Below are positions 27,098-43,703 of a stretch of 45,764 bases of DNA, piece after piece. Both the position numbers and the translations under genes were made by a program. This DNA is from a virus: IMG/VR virus record IMGVR_UViG_3300006052_000013, one strand, 5' to 3'. The notes below the pieces were generated by a model. It searched no databases. It had not been told where the DNA came from and saw only the letters and a list, made by a program, of their open reading frames with translations. How positions within the stretch are numbered: position 1 is the stretch's first letter; each line of letters opens with the position of its first letter.

Positions 27098-27126
27098 ATT
27101 ACCACGGGTTTACCCGTGGCCCTCTG
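27098..27126 (-). repeat. junction hairpin (JH) motif copy 1
   Basis: RNA sense CAGAGGGCCACGGGUAAACCCGUGGUAAU; abuts the UAA of 27127..27636. Confidence 0.8.
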
Positions 27127-27636
27127 TTATTCTCCGGTTTGTTCAAAGTGCCGGATACGTTCTTTGGTAATATTGACATACTCGGTAGTCCCCGGGGTGG
27201 CATCCCGAAGTCTTCTTTCAAAAGTTTCTGGCCAGTGACCTCGGCCGTAGTTGCGATAACCCCTTAAAAGAAACAAGCGTGCCGCGGCACTCTTATCTAT
27301 GCCAAGCCATTCCGCGGCGCGGTCGGGGGTATCCGTGTGAAAGATAAAATAAGATACGTCTGTTTCTTCATCTTTAATCGGTTTAACCTGTCCCGTCATT
27401 ACCAGAATATTTCCCGCCAGGCATCCCACCGTATTACAGGGGGGAACATCATCGGCCGTCGGCGAAAATTCTGATAATATTTGAGACACTCTTTTTTTCA
27501 AAACATCGCCTTCTTTGGCCGTTACTCCCCACAAACCCATGTTGAACCGAAGTGGTTCTTTCTCGATGTACTCAATTAACTGCTCGAGTTTCGCCACGGT
27601 TTCCGGGGATGGCTTTTCGTATTGTTGGTTTTCCAA
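27127..27636 (-). CDS. hypothetical protein
   Basis: TTG start after AAGGAGAGGAA; JH copy 2 lies upstream. Confidence 0.55.
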   Translation of the reverse strand: MENQQYEKPSPETVAKLEQLIEYIEKEPLRFNMGLWGVTAKEGDVLKKRVSQILSEFSPTADDVPPCNTVGCLAGNILVMTGQVKPIKDEETDVSYFIFHTDTPDRAAEWLGIDKSAAARLFLLRGYRNYGRGHWPETFERRLRDATPGTTEYVNITKERIRHFEQTGE

Positions 27637-27665
27637 ATTCCTCTCCTTGATAACGGAAGATATCC

Positions 27666-27694
27666 GTTACACCGGGTTTCCCCGGTGCCCTCTG
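27666..27694 (-). repeat. JH motif copy 2
   Basis: CAGAGGGCACCGGGGAAACCCGGUGUAAC; 2 nt after the UAA of 27697..28209. Confidence 0.75.
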
Positions 27695-27696
27695 GT

Positions 27697-28209
27697 TTAT
27701 GCCGCCTTCTTTTTGTTGGCATTCCGGACTTTGACGCGACGTTGCATCTCGGCCGAACGTTCTTCCGGAGACATTTTGTCCCAGTAACTTTTCGCCCCGA
27801 TGGCAACTTTTGATTTTCTTTTGGTTTTCGCCCATCGCAATCGCTGGGCCTGGGCAATCCGGTTCCGTGCCGACTTGGACAGACGACGTTTCAATGGTTT
27901 GTCATCATGTGAACGAACATGAATCGTCGTCGTGCCAGGGGCGATTTCATTCCCTTGGTCGGTTGCTCCCCGCATCTGGGGCAAATGTTGGGTACCGTCC
28001 AATAACTCCCCGCGCGTCTCGGCGAGAAGAAGCGTTCCCACCCAATGGGCAGCGTCGGGCGGAGTGATCGCTCCGCCTGTCTCTGCTCCGAGGGCGTTAA
28101 GCTGCGCTTTGATATCCCGGTAAAGGTAACCGAGCCGGAATGCCGCAGTTTGGAAAATGGAATGACTTTCCTTAGTGCTCCCATACTGTTTTCCTCTCCT
28201 TGGTTTCAT
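27697..28209 (-). CDS. hypothetical basic protein
   Basis: ATG after GAGGAUAAAAAC; C-terminus RLRWAKTKRKSK...NANKKKAA. Confidence 0.55.
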   Translation of the reverse strand: MKPRRGKQYGSTKESHSIFQTAAFRLGYLYRDIKAQLNALGAETGGAITPPDAAHWVGTLLLAETRGELLDGTQHLPQMRGATDQGNEIAPGTTTIHVRSHDDKPLKRRLSKSARNRIAQAQRLRWAKTKRKSKVAIGAKSYWDKMSPEERSAEMQRRVKVRNANKKKAA

Positions 28210-28238
28210 GTTTTTATCCTCATAACGGACAGTAGTCC

Positions 28239-28268
28239 GTTACCGTGGGTTTACCCCACGGCCCTCTG
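28239..28268 (-). repeat. JH motif copy 3
   Basis: CAGAGGGCCGUGGGGUAAACCCACGGUAAC; abuts a UAA. Confidence 0.8.
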
Positions 28269-28676
28269 TTACGCGAGTTCATTCATTGCACTAGCTTGTT
28301 CAAAATCCGACAACGTTCCCTCGAATGTTGCTCCGCAACTGCACGAAACTTTGTAGTCTAGAGAAAAACCATAGAACATTTTCGTTCCTCTTCCCTTGCC
28401 CTCGCTTTTTGTGGCCGGTTCTAAATCTGAACCATTACCATTGACGGAGAGGTCGTGTTCATCGCCCTCGTGGTCTTCGGGTACATACCCAGGAATATCC
28501 TGAGTTGCGCTGATATTTGCATCTTTCAATTCTTCGCCGCATTCGCCGCATTTCAATATTACTCGAACATCGGCCCGGACCTCGGCCGCGATGAGGTCCA
28601 CTTCCAAATCACCTTCTAACTCAACTTCATGGGGGTCTTCATAGGGAACAAACTTATTGCAACTTGGACAACGCAT
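28269..28676 (-). CDS. Zn-ribbon protein
   Basis: Start reset to the ATG after AGGAGAGGAAA (the track ORF reads through the UTR as MLPYQERK). CPSC...CGEC. Confidence 0.55.
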   Translation of the reverse strand: MRCPSCNKFVPYEDPHEVELEGDLEVDLIAAEVRADVRVILKCGECGEELKDANISATQDIPGYVPEDHEGDEHDLSVNGNGSDLEPATKSEGKGRGTKMFYGFSLDYKVSCSCGATFEGTLSDFEQASAMNELA

Positions 28677-28741
28677 TTTCCTCTCCTGATATGGCAACAA
28701 ATAAGCCGTTGGCTTATTTGTTGAGGTTTCCCCTCATTGCC
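28677..28741 (-). promoter_or_regulatory. Y-shaped 5'-UTR element copy A
   Basis: AUGGCAA-U-GAGGGGAAACCUC-A-ACAAAUAAGCCAACGGCUUAUUUGU-UGCCAU-AUC-AGGAGAGG. Confidence 0.6.
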
Positions 28742-28768
28742 ATTACCGGCCCGTGGGCCGGCCCTCTG
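28742..28768 (-). repeat. JH motif copy 4
   Basis: CAGAGGGCCGGCCCACGGGCCGGUAAU; abuts a UAA. Confidence 0.8.
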
Positions 28769-28987
28769 TTACTGAATACCCCGCGCCGGTGGTACGTGGT
28801 GTGCGTCCGGACGCAATACCCCCGGCGGAACTTCCATATCGGGCGGCGGCGCACATCGGTTCTGAGATAGAAGCGCCTGTTGCATAATCTCCCAGGCCTT
28901 TTCCTGTCGCCGGGCCAAAGAGAATACATACCATAGGTACAATACTCCCAGTAAAATTAACGCCAAACTTGCCAAACCTTCATTCAT
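28769..28987 (-). CDS. small single-pass membrane protein
   Basis: Start reset to MNEGLASLALILLGVLYLWYVF after GGUAAGGAGGGAACAACA. Confidence 0.5.
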   Translation of the reverse strand: MNEGLASLALILLGVLYLWYVFSLARRQEKAWEIMQQALLSQNRCAPPPDMEVPPGVLRPDAHHVPPARGIQ

Positions 28988-28999
28988 TGTTGTTCCCTC

Positions 29000-29029
29000 C
29001 TTACCACGGGTATTACCCCGCGGCCCTCG
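29000..29029 (-). repeat. JH motif copy 5
   Basis: CGAGGGCCGCGGGGUAAUACCCGUGGUAAG; has a G-U pair; the sigma ORF stop UAA lies in the loop. Confidence 0.8.
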
Positions 29030-30362
29030 GTTGTTCTTCGGTGACCGGCGCCATCCAGTGCAGTTTTCCATCCGATTCCAGGATTAATTCTTTATCTTGG
29101 CATCGACGGATGATCGAATAGGCCTGACCATTTGTGGTACCCGCGGTCATCATCTTCTGAACTAATTCGTTCTTAGGAAGAGGCCCATCGGCGAGTATCT
29201 GTTTTAAGACCGGTTCCCAATATCCTCGTGGTGAACGAGTCTGCGGGGCATTTCCATTGACCTCATCATGGGCCGTCGCATTAATCGACTTCTTTCCCGT
29301 GATAATATCGTGGGCACTTGTCAGTTGTTCAATCACCGCGGTCCACTTACGGGCCTCGGCCTCGGATTCCGCGGCCTGCCGGGTATAAAACTGTACCTTG
29401 CGATGGGCATCAGATATCAAAGACTCGATGGTCGGTGGTGATCCACTTGGTATTTGTTCCATTGTTTTCTCTCCTTGTTGTTTTAGTTGAAAGAGATAGT
29501 TTTGATGAACAATCTCTTCCTGGGTATACTGCCGAACCGGCCCCGGTGCTGTGACCGTCCGGGGGGGACGGAGATTCACGGGGGTTTTTGCCAGAAGTCC
29601 GTGCGACGTAAATATTTGATTCGGGGCACGAGGGTCGCGTCCGCTCAGATGGTAATAACTACCCAGTTCCGTTTCATTGAATCTGGACGCCCCCGCATTC
29701 CGTGAACTTCGTATTTGCGTCGGTGGTGGACTCCCGATGTGTTCCCGGGCGGCCGCGGCGACCAGTTTTTCGCGCCGCAACCTTCGTTTTTTCTTGCTCA
29801 TTGATTTGCTCATTGATTTGCTCTCCCACAACACTCGAAGATCACTCAAACCGTGTGATTGATAGGCCTTTACGGCCCCGACGGACAAATTTAAAATTCC
29901 GGCGGTTTCTTCCAAAGTTTTTTCTTCCAGAAATCTAAGAAACAACACGCGGCGCCGGCTCCTATTCAAATACGGTAACAAGCGCAAAAAATGCTCACGT
30001 GTGATCCAGGAATCTATGGTTTTATCCGGAGTATCCGGCAAATCCAGGGTGTTTCCATCTTCATTGATGGGATTATCCAAGGATACTTCTGAAAGATTGT
30101 TCTTTCTTCGTAGGTACATCAAAAATTCCCGGTGCGCAATTTGATGCAACCAGGAACTTAATTTGGCCTCACCTCGAAAATCGCCGATGGCCAGAAAGGC
30201 CTTCGTAAAGGTCACCTGGGCCAGTTCTTCCACGGCGTCTTCATTCAGTTGCCAATATTTGCGCAAAGTTTTTTTTACCCGCGATAACTGGTCACGATAT
30301 ATTTGGGAGAACGCGTCTTGATCGCCGGATTTTGCACGATCTAATAATTCTTTTTCTTCCAC
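29013..30362 (-). CDS. ECF-like sigma-70 family factor with a ~270-aa C-terminal extension
   Basis: Region 2: DAFSQIYRD...SWLHQIAHREFLMYLRRK. Region 4: RRRVLFLRFLEEKTLEETAGILNLSVGAVKAYQSHGL. GTG start after AAAGGAGAACGUAA. Confidence 0.8.
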   Translation of the reverse strand: MEEKELLDRAKSGDQDAFSQIYRDQLSRVKKTLRKYWQLNEDAVEELAQVTFTKAFLAIGDFRGEAKLSSWLHQIAHREFLMYLRRKNNLSEVSLDNPINEDGNTLDLPDTPDKTIDSWITREHFLRLLPYLNRSRRRVLFLRFLEEKTLEETAGILNLSVGAVKAYQSHGLSDLRVLWESKSMSKSMSKKKRRLRREKLVAAAAREHIGSPPPTQIRSSRNAGASRFNETELGSYYHLSGRDPRAPNQIFTSHGLLAKTPVNLRPPRTVTAPGPVRQYTQEEIVHQNYLFQLKQQGEKTMEQIPSGSPPTIESLISDAHRKVQFYTRQAAESEAEARKWTAVIEQLTSAHDIITGKKSINATAHDEVNGNAPQTRSPRGYWEPVLKQILADGPLPKNELVQKMMTAGTTNGQAYSIIRRCQDKELILESDGKLHWMAPVTEEQPRAAG

Positions 30363-30384
30363 TTACGTTCTCCTTTGATATTTA

Positions 30385-30415
30385 CTTACCGGGGAAATAT
30401 ATCCCCCGGCCCTCG
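30385..30415 (-). repeat. JH motif copy 6
   Basis: CGAGGGCCGGGGGAUAUAUUUCCCCGGUAAG. Confidence 0.8.
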
Positions 30416-30430
30416 TTTTTACCACTACTT

Positions 30431-30601
30431 TTACACTTTCAAAACGGGATTTTCGTCCATCACCGCACGCTCGGCCAGAAACCCCGCCGCGGTGGCGGTG
30501 ATTTCTATCTCGCGGTGCCGATCCCGCACGGTGATTGTGCGGCCATTTAATAATTCTCGCAATTCTTTTTCTCCGAGTTCTACTTTAATTGGCTCTTTCA
30601 T
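30431..30601 (-). CDS. small hypothetical protein (56 aa)
   Basis: Start reset to MKEPIKV after AGGAGAGGAAC. Confidence 0.5.
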   Translation of the reverse strand: MKEPIKVELGEKELRELLNGRTITVRDRHREIEITATAAGFLAERAVMDENPVLKV

Positions 30602-30665
30602 GTTCCTCTCCTGGTATGGCAAACATTGCGGCGAAGCCGCATGTTTGAGGTTTCCCCTCATTGCC
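30602..30665 (-). promoter_or_regulatory. Y-shaped 5'-UTR element copy B
   Basis: AUGGCAA-U-GAGGGGAAACCUC-A-AACAUGCGGCUUCGCCGCAAUGUU-UGCCAU-ACC-AGGAGAGGAAC-AUG. Confidence 0.6.
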
Positions 30666-30694
30666 ATTACCGTGGATTTACCCACGGCCCTCTG
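30666..30694 (-). repeat. JH motif copy 7
   Basis: CAGAGGGCCGUGGGUAAAUCCACGGUAAU. Confidence 0.8.
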
Positions 30695-30714
30695 AGTTAC
30701 TAGGAATGGGCTTA

Positions 30715-30906
30715 TTAGGCAAACTGATAATCACTTTTTTTTGCTCGAAAGCCCTTTTTCTTGAGAAGACTGGCATCCCACCCCGTGATATCCTTCACGT
30801 CCTTTACGGCATACTCCCAGGCCTCGCTGGCAGATGTTCCGGGGCGATGATACAAAACTACCCCTTCTCGATCTACCAACATCCAAACCCGATCTAATTC
30901 TGGCAT
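30715..30906 (-). CDS. small hypothetical protein (63 aa)
   Basis: Start reset to MPELDRVW after AGGAGGGAAAGC. Confidence 0.5.
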   Translation of the reverse strand: MPELDRVWMLVDREGVVLYHRPGTSASEAWEYAVKDVKDITGWDASLLKKKGFRAKKSDYQFA

Positions 30907-30922
30907 GCTTTCCCTCCTGTTC

Positions 30923-30953
30923 ATTAACGCGGCAGGTTCGCCGCGTCCCTCTG
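30923..30953 (-). repeat. JH motif copy 8 (variant)
   Basis: CAGAGGGACGCGGCGAACCUGCCGCGUUAAU; abuts a UAA. Confidence 0.7.
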
Positions 30954-32057: not shown

Positions 32058-32127
32058 GTTCCTCTCCTGGTATGGCAAACCAAGAGACGAAGTCTCTTGG
32101 TTCTGAGGTTTCCCCTCATTAACCATA
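32058..32127 (-). promoter_or_regulatory. Y-shaped 5'-UTR element copy C
   Basis: GUAUGGUUA-AUGAGGGGAAACCUCA-GAACCAAGAGACUUCGUCUCUUGGUU-UGCCAUAC-C-AGGAGAGGAAC-AUG. Confidence 0.6.
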
Positions 32128-32153
32128 CTTACCGTGGTTTCCCACGGCCCTCG
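32128..32153 (-). repeat. JH motif copy 9
   Basis: CGAGGGCCGUGGGAAACCACGGUAAG. Confidence 0.8.
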
Positions 32154-32156
32154 TCA

Positions 32157-32419: not shown

Positions 32420-32486
32420 GTTCCTCTCCTGGTACAGCAACAAGAGACGGTTTAAGTTTCTTGTTTGGGATTTTTTCCCGGCTGTA
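32420..32486 (-). promoter_or_regulatory. Y-shaped 5'-UTR element copy D
   Basis: GUACAGC-C-GGGAAAAAAUCCC-A-AACAAGAAACUUAAACCGUCUCUUGUU-GCUGUAC-C-AGGAGAGGAAC-AUG. Confidence 0.6.
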
Positions 32487-32514
32487 CTTACCGCGGGTTT
32501 CCCCGCGGCCCTCG
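32487..32514 (-). repeat. JH motif copy 10
   Basis: CGAGGGCCGCGGGGAAACCCGCGGUAAG. Confidence 0.8.
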
Positions 32515-32550
32515 TATCACTGCGAGAATCGCAGAGATATGTTTTTATTT

Positions 32551-32709: not shown

Positions 32710-32720
32710 TGTTTTCTCCT

Positions 32721-32828: not shown

Positions 32829-32865
32829 ATCGCGCGTCCTCCTTTCAAGTCAATGGGGAGATTGA

Positions 32866-32891
32866 CTTACCGTGGTTTCCCACGGCCCTCG
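32866..32891 (-). repeat. JH motif copy 11
   Basis: CGAGGGCCGUGGGAAACCACGGUAAG; abuts a UAA. Confidence 0.8.
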
Positions 32892-33014
32892 TTAACGAAC
32901 CACGCTATAAACCAGATTAACATTGTCGCCGATTAGGTGGCGACTGCCGATGATAATGATTACGACGACCGCCAGTACTACTACGTACTCTCCGAGTTGT
33001 TTAAGTTTGTTCAT
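32892..33014 (-). CDS. Flp-pilin-like small peptide (40 aa)
   Basis: MNKLKQLGEYVVVLAVVVIIIIGSRHLIGDNVNLVYSVVR; ATG after CCGGAGGAAACA; below the track cutoff. Confidence 0.4.
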   Translation of the reverse strand: MNKLKQLGEYVVVLAVVVIIIIGSRHLIGDNVNLVYSVVR

Positions 33015-33028
33015 TGTTTCCTCCGGTA

Positions 33029-33056
33029 CTTACCGGCCCAGATGGGCCGGCCCTCG
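33029..33056 (-). repeat. JH motif copy 12
   Basis: CGAGGGCCGGCCCAUCUGGGCCGGUAAG; abuts a UGA. Confidence 0.8.
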
Positions 33057-33272
33057 TCACGCAGTAATAGGTTCCAGGGTAACCTTGAAACCCTTGAGGT
33101 CCCCGAGTTCAGAGATACCCAGTTCTTTCATCGCCTCCAGACGGTTGACGTAGATGTTGGTGAGTACGCCGGACTGATCCTTGGGAAGGCTGTATTTGAC
33201 TGCTCCCTTCTTGGGATCAACCACGCGCAGCTCTACGGTTACCGTCTTGGCCTTTGGTTTTTCGGGTGCCAT
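33057..33272 (-). CDS. small hypothetical protein (71 aa)
   Basis: Start reset to MAPEKPKAK after GUGGAGAGGAAAAAU. Confidence 0.5.
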   Translation of the reverse strand: MAPEKPKAKTVTVELRVVDPKKGAVKYSLPKDQSGVLTNIYVNRLEAMKELGISELGDLKGFKVTLEPITA

Positions 33273-33326
33273 ATTTTTCCTCTCCACTTTTAAGGTCACC
33301 GCCGGATTCGTGCCCCCGGCTTGTGC

Positions 33327-33354
33327 CTTACCGTGGGTTTCCCCACGGCCCTCG
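33327..33354 (-). repeat. JH motif copy 13
   Basis: CGAGGGCCGUGGGGAAACCCACGGUAAG. Confidence 0.8.
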
Positions 33355-33391
33355 TATCACTGCGATAATCGCAGAGATATGTTTTGAGTTT

Positions 33392-33749: not shown

Positions 33750-33803
33750 ATTGTTCCTCTCCTAATAAGGCTCACTCCGGTTTTCGTGCCCCCGGATGGT
33801 GGC

Positions 33804-33833
33804 CTTACGGGTCACCGGAGTGACCCGCCTTCG
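33804..33833 (-). repeat. JH motif copy 14 (variant, GAAGGC flank)
   Basis: CGAAGGCGGGUCACUCCGGUGACCCGUAAG. Confidence 0.65.
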
Positions 33834-33843
33834 GGGAAACAAC

Positions 33844-34059: not shown

Positions 34060-34093
34060 TTTCCTCTCCTTACAAGGCTCACTCTATTGTGGC

Positions 34094-34122
34094 CTTACCG
34101 TGGGTTTTCCCCACGGCCCTCG
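34094..34122 (-). repeat. JH motif copy 15
   Basis: CGAGGGCCGUGGGGAAAACCCACGGUAAG; abuts a UAA. Confidence 0.8.
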
Positions 34123-34380
34123 TTATATTTGTAGTGGTTTATTTTCGTTGAGACTGCGAGTAACCGCCGCCCAGGAAAATTCCAGACGCATTTCCCGTAC
34201 CTGGGGCACGTCCAGATTCATATGGGAGTAAACGGAAACTACGCAATAATCTAACATTCGACCAGAAGTAACGGCAGTAAGAATGACCCGTGGGCCAACC
34301 TGGAGTTTGACCATGGGTAATTCTTTTTTGACCTTTTCCTCGGTCCATTCCGGATTGGGTGTCGATTTTGCTTTTTTCAT
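34123..34380 (-). CDS. small hypothetical protein (85 aa)
   Basis: ATGA overlap with the upstream gene. Confidence 0.5.
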   Translation of the reverse strand: MKKAKSTPNPEWTEEKVKKELPMVKLQVGPRVILTAVTSGRMLDYCVVSVYSHMNLDVPQVREMRLEFSWAAVTRSLNENKPLQI

Positions 34381-34797: not shown

Positions 34798-34864
34798 ATT
34801 CCTCTCCTGGTATGGCAGTGTCGACGGCGGAGGCCGTCGCACTCTGAGGTTTCCCTCTGCCACA
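34798..34864 (-). promoter_or_regulatory. Y-shaped 5'-UTR element copy E
   Basis: GUGUGGCAG-A-GAGGGAAACCUC-A-GAGUGCGACGGCCUCCGCCGUCGACACU-GCCAUAC-C-AGGAGAGGAAU-AUG. Confidence 0.55.
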
Positions 34865-34894
34865 CTTACCGTGGAAGTTATCCCACGGCCCTCG
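34865..34894 (-). repeat. JH motif copy 16
   Basis: CGAGGGCCGUGGGAUAACUUCCACGGUAAG. Confidence 0.8.
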
Positions 34895-34895
34895 T

Positions 34896-35123: not shown

Positions 35124-35143
35124 CTTTGTCGTTCTCCTTTGTA

Positions 35144-35172
35144 CTTACCACGGGTTACCCCCGTGGCCCTCG
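35144..35172 (-). repeat. JH motif copy 17
   Basis: CGAGGGCCACGGGGGUAACCCGUGGUAAG; abuts a UAA. Confidence 0.8.
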
Positions 35173-35298
35173 TTAGTGACGCGTTATAAACCATTGAACC
35201 ATCAAGATGACCCCGGTAATCGAAAACCCAACGATTACCGCCCCAATCATCGTGGCGATCCAACCATGTTGAGGCTCCTCTTCGTCATTGTTTTTCAT
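35173..35298 (-). CDS. small membrane peptide (41 aa)
   Basis: MKNNDEEEPQHGWIATMIGAVIVGFSITGVILMVQWFITRH; the start overlaps the upstream gene end. Confidence 0.35.
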   Translation of the reverse strand: MKNNDEEEPQHGWIATMIGAVIVGFSITGVILMVQWFITRH

Positions 35299-35467: not shown

Positions 35468-35483
35468 TGTTTTCTCCTTTGTA

Positions 35484-35513
35484 CTTACCGGCCCATGACT
35501 GGGCCGGCCCTCG
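35484..35513 (-). repeat. JH motif copy 18
   Basis: CGAGGGCCGGCCCAGUCAUGGGCCGGUAAG. Confidence 0.8.
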
Positions 35514-35533
35514 TTTACCACATTATGAATTAT

Positions 35534-35824: not shown

Positions 35825-35884
35825 TTGAATCTCTCCTATCACGAACAAATTTGCTTCCAACGCACGGCCTGGAGGGACGAGTGC

Positions 35885-35911
35885 GTTACCACGGTTTCCC
35901 GTGGCCCTCTG
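35885..35911 (-). repeat. JH motif copy 19
   Basis: CAGAGGGCCACGGGAAACCGUGGUAAC; abuts a UAA. Confidence 0.8.
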
Positions 35912-36178: not shown

Positions 36179-36197
36179 TGTTTCTCCTTTATTTGGT

Positions 36198-36228
36198 CGT
36201 AACGCCGGGGATCACCCGGCGCCCTCTG
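36198..36228 (-). repeat. JH motif copy 20 (variant)
   Basis: CAGAGGGCGCCGGGUGAUCCCCGGCGUUACG; the upstream ORF stop UGA lies in the loop. Confidence 0.7.
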
Positions 36229-36636: not shown

Positions 36637-36665
36637 CTTAAACCCCCTCAGAGGGGGTTCCCTCG
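36637..36665 (-). repeat. JH motif copy 21 (variant)
   Basis: CGAGGGAACCCCCUCUGAGGGGGUUUAAG; the upstream ORF stop UGA lies in the loop. Confidence 0.65.
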
Positions 36666-36884: not shown

Positions 36885-36903
36885 TTGAAATTCTCTCCTT
36901 GTA

Positions 36904-36931
36904 CTTACCACGGATTTCTCCGTGGCCCTCG
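36904..36931 (-). repeat. JH motif copy 22
   Basis: CGAGGGCCACGGAGAAAUCCGUGGUAAG. Confidence 0.8.
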
Positions 36932-36953
36932 TTATCAGGGACACTACATCTTG

Positions 36954-37364: not shown

Positions 37365-37398
37365 GTTAATTCCTCTCCTATTTAAAGATTTGATTGGT

Positions 37399-37428
37399 CT
37401 TACGGGTCACCGAAGTGACCCACCCTCG
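37399..37428 (-). repeat. JH motif copy 23
   Basis: CGAGGGUGGGUCACUUCGGUGACCCGUAAG; UUCG loop; abuts a UAA. Confidence 0.8.
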
Positions 37429-38991
37429 TTAGTCGTTCTGTTTTTCTTTGTACTCCATAGACCGCACGATGACCCCGAACAACAGGTCGCCCAGGCGGTG
37501 CAACATACCCGGAATCACGATCGCGTTGGGGTTGTGGGAGGTTCCCAGAAGGGCGCCAAACCCAAAGTAACCTTTGTGCAACCGGAGTTCCGGGTCGGCC
37601 AGTCCGGGAGACTTTTGAATTTCTCCGTCGTAGTCGTATTGCATTTCATTGTGCCGGAAACTGCAACCGAAGTTCACCAGATCGTCGGGGCGATTCTCAT
37701 AACCGGTCAGGTTATAAAACTCATCCACTTTGGTTTCGGTCTGGGAACGACCCCGCCGGATCACAAAGTCTTTTATGATCCGGTCCCACCCGGTGACATC
37801 TGACACGATGCGCCCCGTCCGCAGTGCCCGGTAGTAATCGGCCCGGTTCTGGGGAAGATCGCCCTCGTAATCTACCAGGTTCGAGGCAGAAAGATCACGA
37901 AATACCCGGTACTTCGTGTTTTTTTGGATGATGTAATCATCCGGATTAAATACGGAGTCCTTGGGATAGTGGGTCAATACCGAATAATCGGTATCAATTC
38001 CTCGATCCTGGGCATCGTGAAGTTGCCGGAGCATCTCGGCGGTAGAGTTTCCCAGGCCAATAAAGAGAAATTTCTTTCCCTTAATTTGCGGGTAAGTGAG
38101 GCGCTTTTGCCAACGGTTACCGGCGTGGGTGACCTCCGCAGATGTCACCATACGGTGGCGATCCGAGAGGTTTTTCGGTTTTCCCAGTCCCAGGCAGTTG
38201 ATGACGATGGGGTACTCCTTAAAACTTTGACCACGGTCATAAACCCCGTGGGCAAGATTGTTCGGAGTAACCGTGGTGACGTCGTTGGTGATAACGTTTA
38301 ATGAATTGGCGTTCTGGATATTTTGCAGAAAATCCCGTACCTCCGATCCTTCGCCGGGCGCCGGTTCCAGGGCATACTCGCCCAGGACCAATCTACGAGG
38401 ATTGTTTCGACTCCCGCCTTTGATATCTTCCCGTGACCAGATTCCAAATGGTTTGCCCTTTTCATAAAGAGTTACATTTTTAAATCCGGTGCGACTCAGG
38501 CCATATCGTACAATTTGGCCCGCCGCCCCACCACCGATGATGGCAATGGGTGTGTTCCCAATGTCCAAATTGATCACGTTATAAAACGTGGACAAACGTC
38601 CGGCGATACCACTCCCAAAAAAATTATTGGAAGTATTTACCGGAGAGACGGCCAAGGCGCGATCAATTACTTGATTTTGCTCGGGCGTTCCCCGGTAAGT
38701 AACACAGTCGGCGGGTTTCGAGAACAACGAAACTTCACCCAAATAATCCAACACCGGAAATTTTTGGTATATTTCATCTCCGGAAACATTACGCAAGACG
38801 TAACTTCCCAGAAACTTTCCCAGCATTTTCCGACGGCCCATTTCAACAATGGCCTGGTTACTCCAACCTTTATCGCGCGTCATACGTTTTAACACGGATA
38901 TCGGATTGGATAACATTATTGGACTAACGACGTTGTACGACTTCATCGCTTCAACTGCCAAGAACGACTTCAACATTTCTTGGTGATTCAT
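37429..38991 (-). CDS. two-dinucleotide-binding-domain flavoprotein (FAD/NAD(P)-dependent oxidoreductase or monooxygenase-like)
   Basis: IAIIGGGAAGQIVRYGL (GxGxxG) and FLFIGLGNSTAEMLRQL (a second Rossmann motif); start reset to MNHQEML after ACAGGAGAAGAACAA. Confidence 0.7.
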   Translation of the reverse strand: MNHQEMLKSFLAVEAMKSYNVVSPIMLSNPISVLKRMTRDKGWSNQAIVEMGRRKMLGKFLGSYVLRNVSGDEIYQKFPVLDYLGEVSLFSKPADCVTYRGTPEQNQVIDRALAVSPVNTSNNFFGSGIAGRLSTFYNVINLDIGNTPIAIIGGGAAGQIVRYGLSRTGFKNVTLYEKGKPFGIWSREDIKGGSRNNPRRLVLGEYALEPAPGEGSEVRDFLQNIQNANSLNVITNDVTTVTPNNLAHGVYDRGQSFKEYPIVINCLGLGKPKNLSDRHRMVTSAEVTHAGNRWQKRLTYPQIKGKKFLFIGLGNSTAEMLRQLHDAQDRGIDTDYSVLTHYPKDSVFNPDDYIIQKNTKYRVFRDLSASNLVDYEGDLPQNRADYYRALRTGRIVSDVTGWDRIIKDFVIRRGRSQTETKVDEFYNLTGYENRPDDLVNFGCSFRHNEMQYDYDGEIQKSPGLADPELRLHKGYFGFGALLGTSHNPNAIVIPGMLHRLGDLLFGVIVRSMEYKEKQND

Positions 38992-39025
38992 TTGTTCTTC
39001 TCCTGTATAAGCCCGATTCATCGGA

Positions 39026-39055
39026 CTTACACCCCCGTTTCCGGGGATGCCCTCG
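39026..39055 (-). repeat. JH motif copy 24
   Basis: CGAGGGCAUCCCCGGAAACGGGGGUGUAAG; has a U-G pair. Confidence 0.75.
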
Positions 39056-39060
39056 TATCA

Positions 39061-39303: not shown

Positions 39304-39304
39304 G

Positions 39305-39499: not shown

Positions 39500-39565
39500 A
39501 TGTTCCTCTCCTGGTATGGCAAACTGAACGGGTACCGTTCAGTTCTGAGGTTTTCCCTCATTGCC
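39500..39565 (-). promoter_or_regulatory. Y-shaped 5'-UTR element copy F
   Basis: AUGGCAA-U-GAGGGAAAACCUC-A-GAACUGAACGGUACCCGUUCAGUU-UGCCAU-ACC-AGGAGAGGAAC. Confidence 0.6.
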
Positions 39566-39593
39566 ATTACCGGACTTATCGTCCGACCCTCTG
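39566..39593 (-). repeat. JH motif copy 25
   Basis: CAGAGGGUCGGACGAUAAGUCCGGUAAU. Confidence 0.75.
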
Positions 39594-39595
39594 TG

Positions 39596-39928: not shown

Positions 39929-39956
39929 ATTGTTCTCCTTTTAGTCCATATTTGGA

Positions 39957-39983
39957 CTTACCGCCCAAGGTGGGCGGCCCTCA
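39957..39983 (-). repeat. JH motif copy 26
   Basis: UGAGGGCCGCCCACCUUGGGCGGUAAG. Confidence 0.75.
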
Positions 39984-39987
39984 TTGC

Positions 39988-40113
39988 TTACTGCCCCGGC
40001 CCCGACGGAATCGTCAACGCGGCCTCCAGGATGATGAATACACCGGCCATTGCCGCGATAAACAACGCCGTCCAGATATGTTTACGGAACGTCCGCCAAA
40101 TTTGTTTACGCAT
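39988..40113 (-). CDS. small membrane peptide (41 aa)
   Basis: MRKQIWRTFRKHIWTALFIAAMAGVFIILEAALTIPSGPGQ; the start overlaps the upstream stop; below the track cutoff. Confidence 0.35.
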   Translation of the reverse strand: MRKQIWRTFRKHIWTALFIAAMAGVFIILEAALTIPSGPGQ

Positions 40114-40315
40114 GGGCATTCTCCACTTGTTCGGCGGTTAGATCGAGAAGAAGATCAATTTCTGTGGTGGAAAGAGAAGTGTCATTAATTTCAAGAAAAC
40201 TCTTGAGACCTTCTCGGCCACCCCGGCGATATTCTTCCAGGTCAATTTTCTCGAGATTTTCTGCGACTTCGGGGGTGTACATCTTTGCCAATGCTTCTCG
40301 AAGTGAAAGTTTCAT
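40106..40315 (-). CDS. small hypothetical protein (69 aa)
   Basis: ATG after UAAGGAGAACCA. Confidence 0.5.
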   Translation of the reverse strand: MKLSLREALAKMYTPEVAENLEKIDLEEYRRGGREGLKSFLEINDTSLSTTEIDLLLDLTAEQVENAHA

Positions 40316-40340
40316 TGGTTCTCCTTAGTCCATATTTGGA

Positions 40341-40368
40341 CTTACCACTCCTCACGGAATGGCCCTCG
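40341..40368 (-). repeat. JH motif copy 27
   Basis: CGAGGGCCAUUCCGUGAGGAGUGGUAAG; GUGA loop holds the upstream stop; has a U-G pair. Confidence 0.8.
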
Positions 40369-40633
40369 TAAAAAATCCATTTGTTTTAAGTTTGACCAAC
40401 ATATCGGCCAGAATTGAGTATGACCCGATCCAAATATGTCGACCTGCCCTTTTACCGTTGTCGATGTAACGAATTCCGGCGGTGCCCTCGTCCTGGGAAT
40501 ACCATATAATCATCGCGGTGCGGTCACTTGCCTCGCCACGAAAATATCTGGTATCACCCTCGGATTTTCTGGGATATGTTTGTACAAACCCCAATTCTTT
40601 TAAGATATCGTCGGGGTGATCTTTTTCAGTCAT
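40352..40633 (-). CDS. hypothetical protein (93 aa)
   Basis: Start reset to MTEKDHPDD after CAAAGGAGAUAACG. Confidence 0.5.
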   Translation of the reverse strand: MTEKDHPDDILKELGFVQTYPRKSEGDTRYFRGEASDRTAMIIWYSQDEGTAGIRYIDNGKRAGRHIWIGSYSILADMLVKLKTNGFFTRAIP

Positions 40634-40649
40634 CGTTATCTCCTTTGCA

Positions 40650-40677
40650 CTTACGGCCACCGAAGTGACCGCCCTCG
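40650..40677 (-). repeat. JH motif copy 28
   Basis: CGAGGGCGGUCACUUCGGUGGCCGUAAG; UUCG loop; has a U-G pair. Confidence 0.8.
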
Positions 40678-40679
40678 TA

Positions 40680-40916
40680 CTACTGTTTAAAGTGTTGCCC
40701 CGCGGGGAAGGTGATACCCTTCCCAAACTTCCATTCCATGTTTGTCATATCGCCGCCGTCGGTGATAATGACCCGCACGGTGGTGCCCAGGCGGGCGCCC
40801 ACCGAATGGGTATAGTGTTGGAACGCCTTCACCGCCTCTTCCGGCCCCACAAATCGTCTCACATATTCATAGGCGCCATCCGGAAAAAATTGGCAAACAG
40901 AAAATTCATTTTCCAT
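40680..40916 (-). CDS. small hypothetical protein (78 aa)
   Basis: ATG after ACAGGAGAAAAAC. Confidence 0.55.
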   Translation of the reverse strand: MENEFSVCQFFPDGAYEYVRRFVGPEEAVKAFQHYTHSVGARLGTTVRVIITDGGDMTNMEWKFGKGITFPAGQHFKQ

Positions 40917-40930
40917 GTTTTTCTCCTGTA

Positions 40931-40957
40931 CTTACCGGGTTTTCAACCCGGCCCTCG
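40931..40957 (-). repeat. JH motif copy 29
   Basis: CGAGGGCCGGGUUGAAAACCCGGUAAG. Confidence 0.8.
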
Positions 40958-40958
40958 T

Positions 40959-41234
40959 TTATTTTTCAACTCCCATTCTTCCAAGCAACTGCATGACCGA
41001 CTTTGTCCGAAACGGAGACAACTGCCGGGGTATGGTGTGCATCAGATGCACACCGACCCCGACTTCCAGTAAGGCCGAGTCGATATGATTTAACACCGCC
41101 GATTCTGACTTTGCCTCCCCGGCTCTTTGCAGGGCCGCGATCGCCAATTCCAAAGCATCTCGATAATTGACCCCGGTGGCCCGTTTTGCGGCCTCTTGTT
41201 CTTTGTGAAAGTCGTCGACATTTGTTTCAAACAT
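40959..41234 (-). CDS. hypothetical protein (91 aa)
   Basis: Start reset to MFETNVDD after CAAAGGAGAACAAA. Confidence 0.5.
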   Translation of the reverse strand: MFETNVDDFHKEQEAAKRATGVNYRDALELAIAALQRAGEAKSESAVLNHIDSALLEVGVGVHLMHTIPRQLSPFRTKSVMQLLGRMGVEK

Positions 41235-41250
41235 TTTGTTCTCCTTTGTA

Positions 41251-41278
41251 CTTACGGTCACCGGGGTGACCGCCCTCG
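41251..41278 (-). repeat. JH motif copy 30
   Basis: CGAGGGCGGUCACCCCGGUGACCGUAAG. Confidence 0.8.
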
Positions 41279-41279
41279 T

Positions 41280-41522
41280 TCAATCTTGATGATAACCACC
41301 GTCCGGATTGGGCGGCAGTAACTCATCATAGGGATTACCGTCGAACAACTTTGCCAACGGAATAATCTCAATTTCTTTCCCGACTATGTTCAACGCCGCC
41401 ACGACGGCCACCGACTTTCCGGTGGACTTATCCTGGCAGTCGATTAAACAAAGTCGGTCGTTGTGATTGGCGTTCGACAATGTTCGGAAGTTGGCGATCT
41501 GACCCTTCGAAAGTTTTGGCAT
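41280..41522 (-). CDS. small hypothetical protein (80 aa)
   Basis: ATG after ACAAGGAGCGUAAU. Confidence 0.55.
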   Translation of the reverse strand: MPKLSKGQIANFRTLSNANHNDRLCLIDCQDKSTGKSVAVVAALNIVGKEIEIIPLAKLFDGNPYDELLPPNPDGGYHQD

Positions 41523-41537
41523 ATTACGCTCCTTGTA

Positions 41538-41567
41538 CTTACCGACTCATTTTTGAGTCGGCCCTCG
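41538..41567 (-). repeat. JH motif copy 31
   Basis: CGAGGGCCGACUCAAAAAUGAGUCGGUAAG. Confidence 0.8.
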
Positions 41568-41570
41568 TTT

Positions 41571-41590
41571 TGGCCATCAGGCGGCCCTCG
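41571..41590 (-). repeat. truncated JH 5' half directly upstream of copy 31
   Basis: CGAGGGCCGCCUGAUGGCCA matches the 5' half of copy 33 (CGAGGGCCGCCUGAG...) but lacks the 3' arm and GGUAAG. Confidence 0.6.
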
Positions 41591-41888
41591 TTGCTTTTTT
41601 GAGCTTGGCCCGGATTGCCCCGGTATCCACCCCATCCAACAGTTCCTCGACGGCCTGCGCCCATTCCAAAACATCCTCGGCCAGGTTATAAGCCCGTTTG
41701 TTTTTCGGGGACAGTGCCTCGGGATCATTGTCCAGGGCCGTGGTCTGGTCCTCGGCAATGATACTGAGACTCATCGCCTCACCATGGGCGACTTCGACCG
41801 CATTGATAACCTTTGCCAATTGCGCCTCGATCTTTTGACGAAAGAGACGTTCCGGAAGTACAATCAACTTTTTTCTTTTGTAAGTCAT
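41577..41888 (-). CDS. hypothetical protein (103 aa)
   Basis: Start reset to MTYKRKKL after CCAAGGAGAGGAACAAA; the C-terminus ..TRAA reads into the truncated JH. Confidence 0.5.
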   Translation of the reverse strand: MTYKRKKLIVLPERLFRQKIEAQLAKVINAVEVAHGEAMSLSIIAEDQTTALDNDPEALSPKNKRAYNLAEDVLEWAQAVEELLDGVDTGAIRAKLKKATRAA

Positions 41889-41976
41889 TTTGTTCCTCTC
41901 CTTGGTAAGTGACGGATCGACGTCATCCTTGCAACTGGCCGTTCGAAGGGGACTCAACAAACACACACCCTTACTA

Positions 41977-42003
41977 GGCGCGGGCGAGTGGAATCGAACC
42001 GAC
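41977..42003 (-). other. tRNA 3'-end-like fragment (T-loop plus acceptor 3' strand) inside a 5' UTR
   Basis: RNA sense GGUUCGAUUCCACUCGCCCGCGCC; no matching 5' half, D arm or anticodon arm. Confidence 0.3.
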
Positions 42004-42009
42004 CCGTCA

Positions 42010-42035
42010 CTTACCGCCCGACCGGGCGGCCCTCG
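42010..42035 (-). repeat. JH motif copy 32
   Basis: CGAGGGCCGCCCGGUCGGGCGGUAAG; abuts a UAA. Confidence 0.8.
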
Positions 42036-42239
42036 TTAGTGTTCCAACTCCACCAAACCAACCTCATCATCAACGCAGGTTTCATGACCCTGTTTCCACA
42101 GTTCCTCGGCCAACAATAGAACCTCTCCCCGATTTTGGAAGTTCTTTTTGGTATATTTCACGATCTGCGGAGACAGGCAATCAACATCCGTTGTGAATTT
42201 AATTCGCCCACCTTTTTCCTGTCCTATGTGATATATCAT
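42036..42239 (-). CDS. small hypothetical protein (67 aa)
   Basis: Start reset to MIYHIGQEKGG after AAAGAGAGGAACA. Confidence 0.5.
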   Translation of the reverse strand: MIYHIGQEKGGRIKFTTDVDCLSPQIVKYTKKNFQNRGEVLLLAEELWKQGHETCVDDEVGLVELEH

Positions 42240-42334
42240 TGTTCCTCTCTTTTTGAAGTACCGGGCCGCACGCGCTCGGAGTCTCGTCATGGACTACTCA
42301 ACCATGATCTTGTCGTCTTGGGTGAGACCCGGTA

Positions 42335-42360
42335 CTTACCGCCTTCTCAGGCGGCCCTCG
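42335..42360 (-). repeat. JH motif copy 33
   Basis: CGAGGGCCGCCUGAGAAGGCGGUAAG; the upstream ORF stop UGA lies in the loop. Confidence 0.8.
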
Positions 42361-42637
42361 TAAGGTTCTGGTAAAGTGATTTCAGGTCTTTGCCCCCACC
42401 CAAATCGCGGTAGGGCACGGTATAGTCACCAAACGGTTCACGGGTGAACCGCTTCCGTTCCCACACCTGAAAGTCTTCGGCGACGAACAGGAATTCCAAC
42501 GGATCAGACCGCCGCCGGAGTATCCAGGTATCATCGACGATTCGCAAAATCGGTCTCATATAAATAGACCAACCCTGTTCTTTCAGATCGAGCAACAACT
42601 TGGTGAATTCTTTGCTTTGTTCGTGGTTCTTTTTCAT
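42347..42637 (-). CDS. hypothetical protein (96 aa)
   Basis: Start reset to MKKNHEQSK after AUGGAGAGAAAACA. Confidence 0.5.
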   Translation of the reverse strand: MKKNHEQSKEFTKLLLDLKEQGWSIYMRPILRIVDDTWILRRRSDPLEFLFVAEDFQVWERKRFTREPFGDYTVPYRDLGGGKDLKSLYQNLTRAA

Positions 42638-42652
42638 TGTTTTCTCTCCATA

Positions 42653-42678
42653 CTTACCACCCCGTGGGGTGGCCCTCG
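42653..42678 (-). repeat. JH motif copy 34
   Basis: CGAGGGCCACCCCACGGGGUGGUAAG; abuts a UGA. Confidence 0.8.
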
Positions 42679-42942
42679 TCAACCAATATCGTTATTGAAC
42701 CAGTTAGTAGTGTCCTGGTCTTTTTGGTGAAGTTCAGGAAATGCGTCGACCAGTTTGTCGGCGATGTTTTCGGCGACGTGATGACTCTCACTGGCCACGG
42801 CCGTGTATTCCCGTTCATAATCGGTACTGCCCGGCCCGACGTACTCCCAGGTTCCTTTGTTGGTCTTTTCGAACGTCTGGGCCTCTACTCGTACGGTCGT
42901 GACATAGACGGTGCGTTGTTCTTTTTGCAAAGTTCTTGCCAT
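42679..42942 (-). CDS. hypothetical protein (87 aa)
   Basis: Start reset to MARTLQKEQ after AGGAGAGGAAU. Confidence 0.5.
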   Translation of the reverse strand: MARTLQKEQRTVYVTTVRVEAQTFEKTNKGTWEYVGPGSTDYEREYTAVASESHHVAENIADKLVDAFPELHQKDQDTTNWFNNDIG

Positions 42943-43006
42943 ATTCCTCTCCTGGTACAGCAACAAGAGATGTAATCTCTTGTTGGGATTTCCTCCCTTA
43001 ACTGTA
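42943..43006 (-). promoter_or_regulatory. Y-shaped 5'-UTR element copy G
   Basis: GUACAGU-UAA-GGGAGGAAAUCCC-A-ACAAGAGAUUACAUCUCUUGU-UGCUGUAC-C-AGGAGAGGAAU-AUG. Confidence 0.6.
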
Positions 43007-43034
43007 CTTACCGCGGAGTGATCCGCGGCCCTCG
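43007..43034 (-). repeat. JH motif copy 35
   Basis: CGAGGGCCGCGGAUCACUCCGCGGUAAG. Confidence 0.8.
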
Positions 43035-43035
43035 T

Positions 43036-43443
43036 TCAGGCAATCTTTTTCATATCCGTGAAGTAAACCTCACGGATACCGTCATGGTCATCCGCATCCC
43101 AGAACTCTTTATCAAGTTCTACGATGAACATTCCCCCACGTTCCGCCTCGACGATCTTGCCGACCTGCCGTGGATTATATTCATCCGCGGACAGTTCGAC
43201 TCGATCACCCTCTTTAAAGCCGCCGTAACTTGGCACGGTGGCCTCAACCGGGGGTGTCTTGGGTTTGGGAACGTACTCTTTCCTCAGCTTCATCGCCGAC
43301 CGAATCCGAACGCCGCGGTTGGTCCGAAGATTGGTTCCATTCCAACCTCCGTAGGAGGAAACGGAATCCAATCGGACGGGAACCAGTTTGTTACTGACTT
43401 TGACGACGTACGTCTTACCAACTTCTACCTCATTCTTTTTCAT
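43036..43443 (-). CDS. hypothetical protein (135 aa)
   Basis: ATG after CAAGGAGAGGAACA. Confidence 0.6.
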   Translation of the reverse strand: MKKNEVEVGKTYVVKVSNKLVPVRLDSVSSYGGWNGTNLRTNRGVRIRSAMKLRKEYVPKPKTPPVEATVPSYGGFKEGDRVELSADEYNPRQVGKIVEAERGGMFIVELDKEFWDADDHDGIREVYFTDMKKIA

Positions 43444-43675
43444 TGTTCCTCTCCTTGAAATCCGAAATCACGCCGCGCGGGGAGGGATGGTTAGTTCCGG
43501 GGTCCAGTTGGCCTGGGCGCGGTTAGTTGGCTGATGTTCCGAACCGGGTGGTTGAAAAGGTGATTAACTAGTACTCACCTTTTGACCATCTCGGCCCACT
43601 TAGGCAACGTTGGCCCTGACGGCGAATGGGAAAGACCAGGATAACTCATACATCCCCGCCCGATGTAATCTCGGA

Positions 43676-43703
43676 CTTACCACCTCAGATGAGGTGGCCC
43701 TCG
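43676..43703 (-). repeat. JH motif copy 36
   Basis: CGAGGGCCACCUCAUCUGAGGUGGUAAG; abuts a UAA. Confidence 0.8.

Follow-up and report, generated by a model that had tools for sequence, protein, structure and literature searches.

An array of 35 predicted twister ribozyme heads without their L4 loop in a single early operon of a phage

We analysed a stretch of 45,764 nucleotides from a phage (IMG/VR record IMGVR_UViG_3300006052_000013; this whole 45.8-kb stretch is called the window), in which a conserved hairpin recurs between the small genes of what is predicted to be one early operon, and in which each hairpin resembles part of a twister ribozyme. All predicted genes of the window are carried by the minus strand. 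The 0-27 kb part contains genes for replication and nucleotide metabolism, the products including PolA, a UvrD-like helicase, an AEP primase, a C5 methylase and a T4 Rnl1-like RNA ligase, together with a vault-like protein of 851 amino acids (aa). Between 27 and 44 kb about 40 small open reading frames (ORFs) follow one another in series, nearly all without family assignment: the assigned ones encode a 449-aa sigma-70-like protein, a KTSC protein and a DUF6117 protein, and a Pfam search with 20 of the array ORFs returned KTSC and DUF6117 only. The best sigma-70-like promoter on the coding strand (TTTTCA-17-TATAAT, 45272..45300, minus strand, promoter scan) is the presumed start of the operon, and a canonical intrinsic terminator with a 10-bp GC stem and a U-run (26977..27009, minus strand, terminator scan) its presumed end; the segment 27009-26986 is the sole strong intrinsic terminator on the coding strand and lies 90 nt past the last hairpin. 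Because the promoter (near 45.28 kb) and the terminator (26.99 kb) bracket the array, the hairpins punctuate one transcript of ~18.3 kb, predicted to be a single early transcription unit. Upstream of the window the phage has promoters and U-tract terminators of the ordinary kind and not one of the hairpins. Between the promoter and the first gene lies a leader of ~1.3 kb (45270-43977, minus strand) with no convincing ORF and many stable hairpins, which is probably a processed non-coding RNA. Transfer RNAs (tRNAs) were not found in the window by ARAGORN. The identical sequence (100%) is present in other contigs of the phage (four samples, several metagenomes), the longest of which is 99.5 kb.

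A regular-expression pass over the minus strand recovered ~32 copies of (stop)-aC/caGAGGGCC-stem-loop-stem-GGUAA-g/u/c, and GAGGGC is found 44 times on the minus strand of the window versus 7 on the plus strand. From 12 copies of equal length we built a covariance model, which, run over the whole window with filters off, gave 35 matches (E <= 0.04, 13.5-48.4 bits). All of them are minus-strand matches within 27095-43704, and one weak variant lies at 36665-36637 (9.3 bits); there was nothing comparable in 1-27000 and 43800-45764, and nothing else above noise on either strand. An earlier note, made from the letters of the window alone, had counted 36 copies and had placed none in 0-27 kb, and on both points the model agrees with it (35 copies and the weak variant). 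In the model-guided alignment of the 35 copies standard pairs fill 97.7% of 309 pair cells, as compared to 59.4% in column shuffles (0 of 500 reach the observed value) and 23-43% when the partners are slid by 1-3 columns. Both sides change in all nine modelled pairs, and seven pairs of the stem are paired in 35/35 copies, while GAGGG and UAA are each kept in 34/35. Nine cells hold wobble pairs that are G-U only in minus-sense RNA. The flanks AC..GU and CA..UG form a covarying 2-bp helix (AU 21 / CG 11; CG 25 / AU 5) with 90% of its cells paired, and a third pair is without support. Selection has thus kept the unpaired nucleotides invariant while the stems turned over, and the proposals of the earlier note that structure was selected rather than copied and pasted, that the element acts as minus-sense RNA with minus-only G-U pairs, that it has two flank subfamilies and that it is no intrinsic terminator (a U-tract is absent after the hairpins) are all borne out. 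Its description of stop codons abutting the hairpin holds as well, with lower counts: the stop lies 1-2 nt ahead of GAGGG in 17/35 copies and at most 6 nt ahead in 22/35 (about 25 had been claimed), and inside the hairpin loop in 4/35 copies and the weak variant (6 had been claimed). The stems measure 7-10 bp, with fold energies of -8.5 to -18.7 kcal/mol. As an observation the array is real and strong; since all contigs of the phage are identical, its covariation is that of paralogous copies within one genome.

We compared the hairpins with Rfam and found that, judged by sequence, each copy is a twister 'head' in type-P5 order, that is, a 2-bp P2 helix, the internal loop L1 (GAGGG opposite UAA) and a closed P1 hairpin, as in the type-P5 twister self-cleaving ribozyme that reportedly goes back to Roth et al. 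in 2014. The heads are laid out as (AC or CA)-GAGGG-[P1 hairpin]-U↓AA-(GU or UG), the arrow marking the scissile bond, and their L1 nucleotides match the twister consensus. At gathering thresholds Rfam gave zero matches, which is why standard annotation misses the array completely; in E-value mode there were seven sub-threshold matches, all to RF02684 (Twister-P5; twister clan CL00120), at 22.9-30 bits against a gathering score of 37.6 bits, with 30.0 bits for a complete copy in the leader and 29.7 bits for a head as the best scores. The RF02684 consensus (cGCA-GAGgG-[P1 hairpin]-UAA-UGCg-GC...-cCG GUCcCAAGCC CGg) aligns with the heads column for column through P2, GAGGG, P1, UAA, P2 and the L2 dinucleotide, after which a block of 20 nt that holds P4 and L4 is skipped. 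From this alignment the conserved flanks correspond to twister L1, the variable stem to P1 (its 7 bp beside the cleavage site being 100% paired in the 35 copies) and the flank subfamilies to P2, with GAGGG and the opposing NAA on the conserved columns of the model. The earlier note had recognised no known family in the motif, a statement that finds no support, the flanks being nucleotides of the twister L1 internal loop; a match to a described family, which it had set as grounds against its own reading, was found by half, the twister family being known and the copies being without its defining P4/L4.

In twister at least ten invariant nucleotides are shared out between L1 and L4, cleavage takes place at U↓A within L1, and the catalytic residues are an L1 guanine and the adenine of the cleavage site (PMC5408937). 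The L4 loop contributes CCCA to the pseudoknot T1 with L1 and a dinucleotide to T2 with the conserved GC of L2, and this L4-P4/L1-T1 architecture is key for the active structure (PMC5408937). Both catalytic residues are present in the L1 of the heads, as the G that opens GAGGG and the A that follows the scissile bond. The heads are like type-P5 twisters in the order P2-GAGGG-P1-U↓AA-P2-L2, the identical L1, the covarying P1 and P2 and their place between genes, with a stop codon directly ahead and a Shine-Dalgarno (SD) sequence and AUG behind. They are different in that P4/L4 is missing in 35/35 copies, leaving 35 heads to 2 L4 loops, that P2 has 2 bp instead of the usual 3-4, that P1 is longer and more stable, and that the scores are sub-threshold. 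Twister-sister (RF02681), which has GCAAG opposite GCUC↓AU in L1 and is cut on the strand opposite to that of twister (PMC5660989), was ruled out, its L1 residues being unlike GAGGG/UAA, and readings of the flanks as K-turn, loop E or UAA/GAN were dropped once the twister alignment appeared.

The heads are numbered here along the minus strand, with scores in bits from the covariance model built on the array copies. Head 1 (AC-GAGGG-P1-UAA-GU) lies at 43673..43704 (40.9 bits), and is followed by head 2 at 43004..43035 (43.9), head 3 at 42650..42679 (31.6), head 4 at 42332..42361 (32.4), head 5 at 42007..42036 (34.9), head 6 at 41535..41568 (33.5), head 7 at 41248..41279 (38.7), head 8 at 40928..40958 (34.4), head 9 at 40647..40678 (39.6), head 10 at 40338..40369 (39.1) and head 11 at 39954..39984 (28.9). 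Head 12, of the CA..UG type with L2 = GC, occupies 39563..39593 (18.2), and heads 13 (39023..39056, 29.1), 14 (37396..37429, 13.5) and 15 (36901..36932, 46.3) precede the weak variant, CGAGGG-AACCCCC-UCUGA-GGGGGUU-UAAGG, at 36637..36665 (9.3 bits, and by folding). In head 16 (36196..36228, 23.4) UUA replaces UAA, so that it is possibly inactive; head 17 (35882..35911, 29.2) is of the CA type, and heads 18 (35481..35514, 34.1), 19 (35141..35173, 39.2), 20 (34862..34895, 32.3) and 21 (34091..34123, 36.4) lead on to head 22, a GAAGG variant (33801..33834, 21.9). Heads 23 (33324..33355, 42.1), 24 (33026..33057, 41.3) and 25 (32863..32892, 32.9) are followed by head 26 (32484..32515, 48.4), which Rfam itself aligned to Twister-P5 with 5 nt in place of the 20-nt P4/L4 block, and by head 27 (32125..32154, 31.5). 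The CA type recurs in heads 28 (30920..30953, 26.3), 29 (30663..30694, 41.7, L2 = GC), 32 (28739..28768, 30.8, L2 = GC), 33 (28236..28268, 34.6) and 34 (27663..27694, 38.2), with heads 30 (30382..30416, 33.1) and 31 (28997..29030, 29.6) in between. Head 35 (27095..27126, 41.9 bits; 29.7 bits to RF02684) is the last and stands just upstream of the operon terminator. The stop codon of the upstream gene lies in the P1 loop of heads 4, 10, 16 and 31 (in the last case that of the sigma-factor gene) and in the loop of the weak variant. Heads 2, 12, 20, 27, 29 and 32 are each followed by a 5' untranslated region (5'UTR) that folds as a three-way junction.

A P4 hairpin with an L4 loop of the type GUCCCAAGCC in the same molecule is absent from 35/35 heads, so that T1 and T2 cannot form in cis, and a systematic search for a cis substitute, i.e. 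any hairpin loop near the heads that contains CCCA, found none. The window has only two L4-type loops, at 44024-44009 and 44609-44594, which both lie on the minus strand, ahead of the first gene in the non-coding leader. Neither further heads nor further L4 loops were found in the 10 kb on each side of the window, so that the two are the only L4 loops in ~66 kb of this phage. The first of the two loops belongs to a complete type-P5 twister at 44009..44139 (minus strand; RF02684 30 bits over the full model 1-58, E 0.001 over 2.4 kb), which we parsed manually as UGCA-GAGGG-P1(8 bp, 23-nt loop)-U↓AA-UGCG-C-P3(with insert)-P4 CCAG/CUGG with L4 UCCCAAGC. This L4 matches the consensus at 10/10 positions, the copy is sub-threshold only because of its 23-nt P1 loop and the ~50-nt insert in P3, and the predicted cut falls between 44091 and 44090. 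A second P2b-like GCA lies further downstream, after AUAAGA. The other loop belongs to a headless twister body at 44568..44628 (minus strand, RF02684 22.9 bits), a candidate donor of L4 in trans, with the parse AAGU-CCACUAC-GACCGAAU-CAGG UCCCAAGU CCUG-...AUAAAGA-GUAGUGG. Its 7-bp helix CCACUAC/GUAGUGG encloses GACCGAAU, the L4 hairpin and ...AUAAAGA, like P2a-L2-P4/L4-J-P2b of twister, so that P2, P4 and L4 are present and GAGGG/P1 does not adjoin them. A possible degenerate head in the leader (ACA-GAGGG-C-CUUGCGA..UCGCGAG-AAU, 44490..44522, minus strand) was missed by the covariance model, and folding of the 44.6-kb body and this 44.5-kb head as one permuted twister gave no convincing P1.

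Two hairpin loops of the leader (44185-44173 and 44117-44105, minus strand) display GGGACUCUCCUCC, which is complementary to AGGAGAG and, by its sequence, looks like an extended anti-Shine-Dalgarno mimic. The second of them doubles as the 23-nt loop of P1 in the complete leader twister. These loops could mask the ribosome-binding site (RBS) of the first gene until self-cleavage, or could pair with RBSs in trans.

Complete type-P5 twisters from other phages served as comparison. A scan of IMG/VR with the pattern GCAGAGGG..TAATGC recovered twelve genuine ones in unrelated phage contigs, and in 12/12 an own P4/L4 follows 9-70 nt downstream, so that heads without L4 are exceptional (0/12 elsewhere versus 35/35 in the array). 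The T2 contact covaries in these twelve (L4 ..AAGC with L2 GC, ..AAGU with AC, ..AACU with GG or AG, ..AAGG with CC). Where flanks were readable the complete twisters stand just upstream of an SD and a start codon, and one copy, in contig L185, directly follows a stop codon. The twister of that contig reads UAAUGC-AC-A-[AGCAGGUCCCAAGUCCUGCU]-AAUAAAAUUAAAGGAGA and the short heads of the array read UAAGU-AC-A-AAGGAGA, so that the short heads look like a twister of the L185 type minus the P4 hairpin. In contig L094 (3465-3560 and 4530-4625) and in L185 (two copies ~1.25 kb apart, minus strand) two or more complete type-P5 twisters flank single genes, and the L094 twister has an unusual L4, GGUCCCAACUCC, with a compensating L2, which makes these contigs natural controls for the covariation of T2.

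The spacers downstream of the heads fall into short and long ones. The distance from UAA to the SD is only 6-13 nt in fifteen heads. Some 20 heads have a spacer of at least 18 nt, and in nearly all of these the next helix begins at nucleotides 1-4 of the predicted 3' product (AAG...CUU; the head at 37429 has no helix), which is consistent with cleavage at U↓AA: a cut there would leave a hairpin or a three-way junction flush with the 5' end. The three-way junctions stand directly after the UAA of the head in seven 5'UTRs (minus strand: 43009-42954, 39568-39513, 34867-34809, 32489-32431, 32130-32069, 30668-30613 and 28744-28688). Their closing helix is GUAUGGC/GCCAUAC or GUACAG/CUGUAC, with covariation, and encloses a conserved hairpin, AAU-GAGG-(GAAA/GGAAA/GAAAA)-CCUC, and a variable hairpin of 10-12 bp. 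The conserved hairpin stands where twister has P4, with a GNRA-like loop instead of L4, and each junction is followed by the same strong RBS, UACC-AGGAGAGGAAC-AUG. No Rfam family matched the junction; RNAalifold on the MAFFT-aligned junctions, which aligned poorly, was not relied on. Two further long and structured spacers after heads (42010-41961 and 43676-43444, minus strand; 110-220 nt, with predicted folds of -44 and -88 kcal/mol) were noted, the first with GGUUCGAUUCC, which resembles the T-arm of a tRNA and is not called as a tRNA by ARAGORN. The 3'UTR between the last head and the terminator (27100-26977, minus strand) contains GUUCCUCUCC at 27057-27048 (minus strand), the exact complement of the RBS GGAGAGGAAC; of its core, GGAGAGGAA, the array has 16 occurrences and the rest of the window one. 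If the last head were cut, an RNA of ~125 nt would be freed that carries this anti-RBS and ends in the terminator, a possible feedback repressor.

We consider that the heads may be cleavage sites at which the polycistronic early transcript is cut into single-gene messenger RNAs (mRNAs), with L4 supplied in trans, and put the chances of this reading a little short of even; of the roles that had been listed in the earlier note an mRNA processing site is the best supported. In this mechanism an L4 loop would dock on a head in trans, with T1 formed between its CCCA and AGGG of the head and, if the sequence permits, T2 between its GU or GC and AC or GC of the head. Docking through T1 and T2 would complete the active site, and the RNA would be cut between U and AA. 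The upstream mRNA would then have the very stable P1 hairpin and a 2',3'-cyclic phosphate at its end, and the downstream mRNA would begin with 5'-OH-AA, followed by a short SD leader or by a hairpin or three-way junction flush with the new end. The net effect would be the conversion of one polycistronic transcript into ~36 stable single-gene mRNAs, dependent on the leader RNA. As a further step, to which we commit ourselves only tentatively, the leader RNA of ~1.2 kb, or its L4 hairpins, may be a multiple-turnover trans cofactor for the ~36 sites without L4 ('one body, many heads'): self-cleavage of the leader twister (44091/44090) would free this RNA together with the headless body that it carries, and the GGGACUCUCCUCC loops might pair with the shared RBS AGGAGAGG and in this way tether it beside the heads.

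The pairing potential of the heads bears on cleavage in trans in both directions. T1 in trans is possible for all heads. The L2 of the AC..GU heads is mostly AC, a fit to the GU-type L4 at 44.6 kb, and that of the CA..UG heads with a three-way junction is GC, a fit to the GC-type L4 at 44.0 kb; the head types thus partly match the two L4 types, a correspondence that is consistent with cleavage in trans, and the very stable P1 suits a protective hairpin at a 3' end. Several points weigh against cleavage in trans. AC or GC is found at L2 in only 15/35 heads (18/35 with wobble), P2 of the heads has only 2 bp, and the contact in trans would rest on ~3 G-C pairs and 0-2 T2 pairs. The P2 of the headless body is closed, so that the loop alone is on offer. 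In about half of the heads with a long spacer U-1 and AA are able to pair within the downstream helix, which would compete with the active fold. Further L4 donors could lie in the ~34 kb of the longest contig beyond the part analysed, the array offers no comparison between genomes because its contigs are identical and the relatives are without the motif, and we know of no natural small nucleolytic ribozyme that acts in trans in such a fashion.

The rival that fares best is that the heads are exapted relics, which descend from complete intergenic twisters, are catalytically dead and are kept as very stable hairpins close to stop codons, where they would block 3' exonucleases after processing by a host RNase, insulate cistrons or present the GAGGG/UAA loop for binding by a phage or host protein. 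We hold this to be rather unlikely. The loss of L4 from 35/35 copies, given its key part in the active structure according to the literature, is what would be expected of relics; the unusually long and G+C-rich P1 with GNRA or UUCG loops is as in stabiliser hairpins, and UAA is often buried in the next helix. However, a structural hairpin has no need of eight invariant unpaired nucleotides that match the catalytic loop of twister, the stems have been completely turned over and the catalytic-loop nucleotides have not, and neither an RNA-binding protein nor a nuclease was recognised among the operon ORFs scanned.

It is improbable that the heads are self-sufficient variants instead, cleaving in cis alone or together with the downstream hairpin or three-way junction through another tertiary contact that replaces T1/T2; the AAU-GAGG-GNRA-like-CCUC hairpin at the P4 position in seven copies would be an example. 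The order of elements in these seven copies (UAA, 5-7-bp helix, AAU, two hairpins, closing strand) does mirror UAA-P2a-L2-P4-P5-P2b of twister, and the complete leader twister likewise has its second P2b-like GCA downstream, but the fifteen heads with 6-13 nt between UAA and the SD leave no room for such a partner, the substitute loops (GAAA, GGAAA, GAAAA) are unable to pair with GGG, and Rfam gives no other ribozyme family there.

A cassette boundary at the DNA level, with the palindromes as recombination or mobility sites like integron attC, T4 PeSL or REP/RAYT, would account for one element per small ORF, for conserved flanks around a variable palindrome and for the prevalence of ORFans, but we think it very improbable, and set aside this suggestion of the earlier note, because the array has a strict single-strand polarity with wobble pairs that the opposite strand would show as A-C mismatches, the flanks GAGGG and UAAG equal twister L1 and do not complement one another as R'' and R' of attC do, the identical contigs showed neither strain variation nor gain or loss of cassettes, and neither the complementary ends nor the GTAG head that mark attC and REP-RAYT were seen, nor any integrase, transposase or Y1 transposase among the part of the ORFs (30) that was scanned against Pfam. 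Equally hard to credit are signals for transcription or translation, i.e. factor-dependent terminators or attenuators, or the couplers of termination and reinitiation through an SD-like GAGG that had also been suggested: the hairpins do stand immediately after stop codons and GAGG has a complement of 4 nt in the anti-SD, but GAGGG and the next start codon downstream are at least ~32 nt apart and that codon is served by a strong SD of its own, no U-tract follows while the phage uses canonical terminators (the heads continue AAGUAC..., and none is listed in the terminator scan of the coding strand), and 35 terminators within the operon would silence distal genes such as that of the sigma factor. 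RNase III sites of the T7 type, with a near-continuous duplex of ~20 bp or more, were likewise rejected, the stems being 7-10 bp.

We looked for relatives of the array. Megablast against phage records gave no match, and scans with the pattern ACGAGGGCC..GGTAAGTAC returned 6 loci in viral contigs and 57 in metagenomes, each with a single match and with neither a second copy nor an array; the viral matches lie in apparently coding sequence that forms no hairpin. A search through the sigma factor and a 520-aa array ORF found no relatives in IMG/VR and, in a set of 5.8 billion proteins, only the protein itself. Relatives were recovered through the major-vault-protein-like gene, with ~50-55% protein identity, in huge-phage-like contigs, which are without the motif and have tRNA arrays. 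In two of them dense tRNA arrays stand among small ORFs upstream or downstream of the vault-like gene (L014, 4.7-8.3 kb and elsewhere; L009, 13.2-15.1 kb), so that tRNAs may be an alternative punctuation of the transcript at the place where this phage has twister heads. The 851-aa protein itself (18149-20704, minus strand) has major-vault-protein shoulder and repeat domains, and has thousands of homologues on metagenomic contigs of up to 894 kb, many of them labelled 'major vault protein' by JGI. Its sole relatives in phage databases are from uncultured huge phages, and it appears to be a widespread huge-phage gene to which no role is assigned. Close to it, the gene for the T4 Rnl1-like RNA ligase (22670-23818) adjoins an ORF with an Acb2/Tad1-hairpin Pfam match according to the contig annotation (22283-22573) and a metallophosphoesterase gene (20914-21519; all minus strand).

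Compared with known systems, punctuation by tRNAs is alike in that a structured RNA and possible processing signal follows each small gene, in the equivalent region of L009 and L014, and different in that RNase P and RNase Z act on the tRNA shape, whereas the heads present a ribozyme core within the mRNA. The intercistronic CUUCGG hairpins of T4 and the REP elements are stabilisers of mRNA 3' ends, and share with the heads very stable tetraloop hairpins just past stop codons in operons; the conserved unpaired flanks that match a ribozyme active site are absent there. The Varkud satellite ribozyme recognises a hairpin substrate by a kissing loop, which resembles the short loop-loop contact proposed here within a different fold. 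Intergenic ribozymes of the hammerhead and twister types have been proposed to cut bacterial and phage polycistronic mRNAs into pieces that differ in stability (PMC3088659, PMC6765202). These too are self-cleaving-ribozyme motifs between phage genes, but they are complete and self-sufficient and occur as ones or in small clusters, whereas the array is 35-fold, incomplete and confined to a single operon. A discontinuous hammerhead in mammalian CLEC2 3'UTRs, as referred to in PMC6765202 (Martick et al. 2008), is likewise a small ribozyme made of separated segments. It differs in being a single pair of halves that base-paired stems connect in cis, and neither it nor the Varkud satellite is a system of one enzyme and many substrates. 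The literature that we consulted describes only complete, cis-acting intergenic ribozymes, with natural trans-cleaving small ribozymes described as still sought. We know of no natural trans-cleaving ribozyme other than RNase P, and to our knowledge an architecture of 35 heads without L4 and two L4 donors in one operon has not been described.

What bacterial and phage twister ribozymes do biologically has yet to be defined (PMC6765202), and trans-cleaving RNAs encoded in genomes have been searched for, according to work that PMC6765202 cites. The operon is a system that can be tested simply, with 35 full catalytic loops that have no folding partner loop and two copies of that partner upstream in the same RNA. 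If the sites are not cut, the array would be a large-scale exaptation of one half of a ribozyme as a structural or protein-binding module. If they are cut, a giant phage operon would be punctuated by ribozymes, by means of a split ribozyme that works in trans. Should one body indeed serve many heads, this would be the first natural trans-cleaving system of a small nucleolytic ribozyme, and a switch that ties the maturation of all early mRNAs to one RNA.

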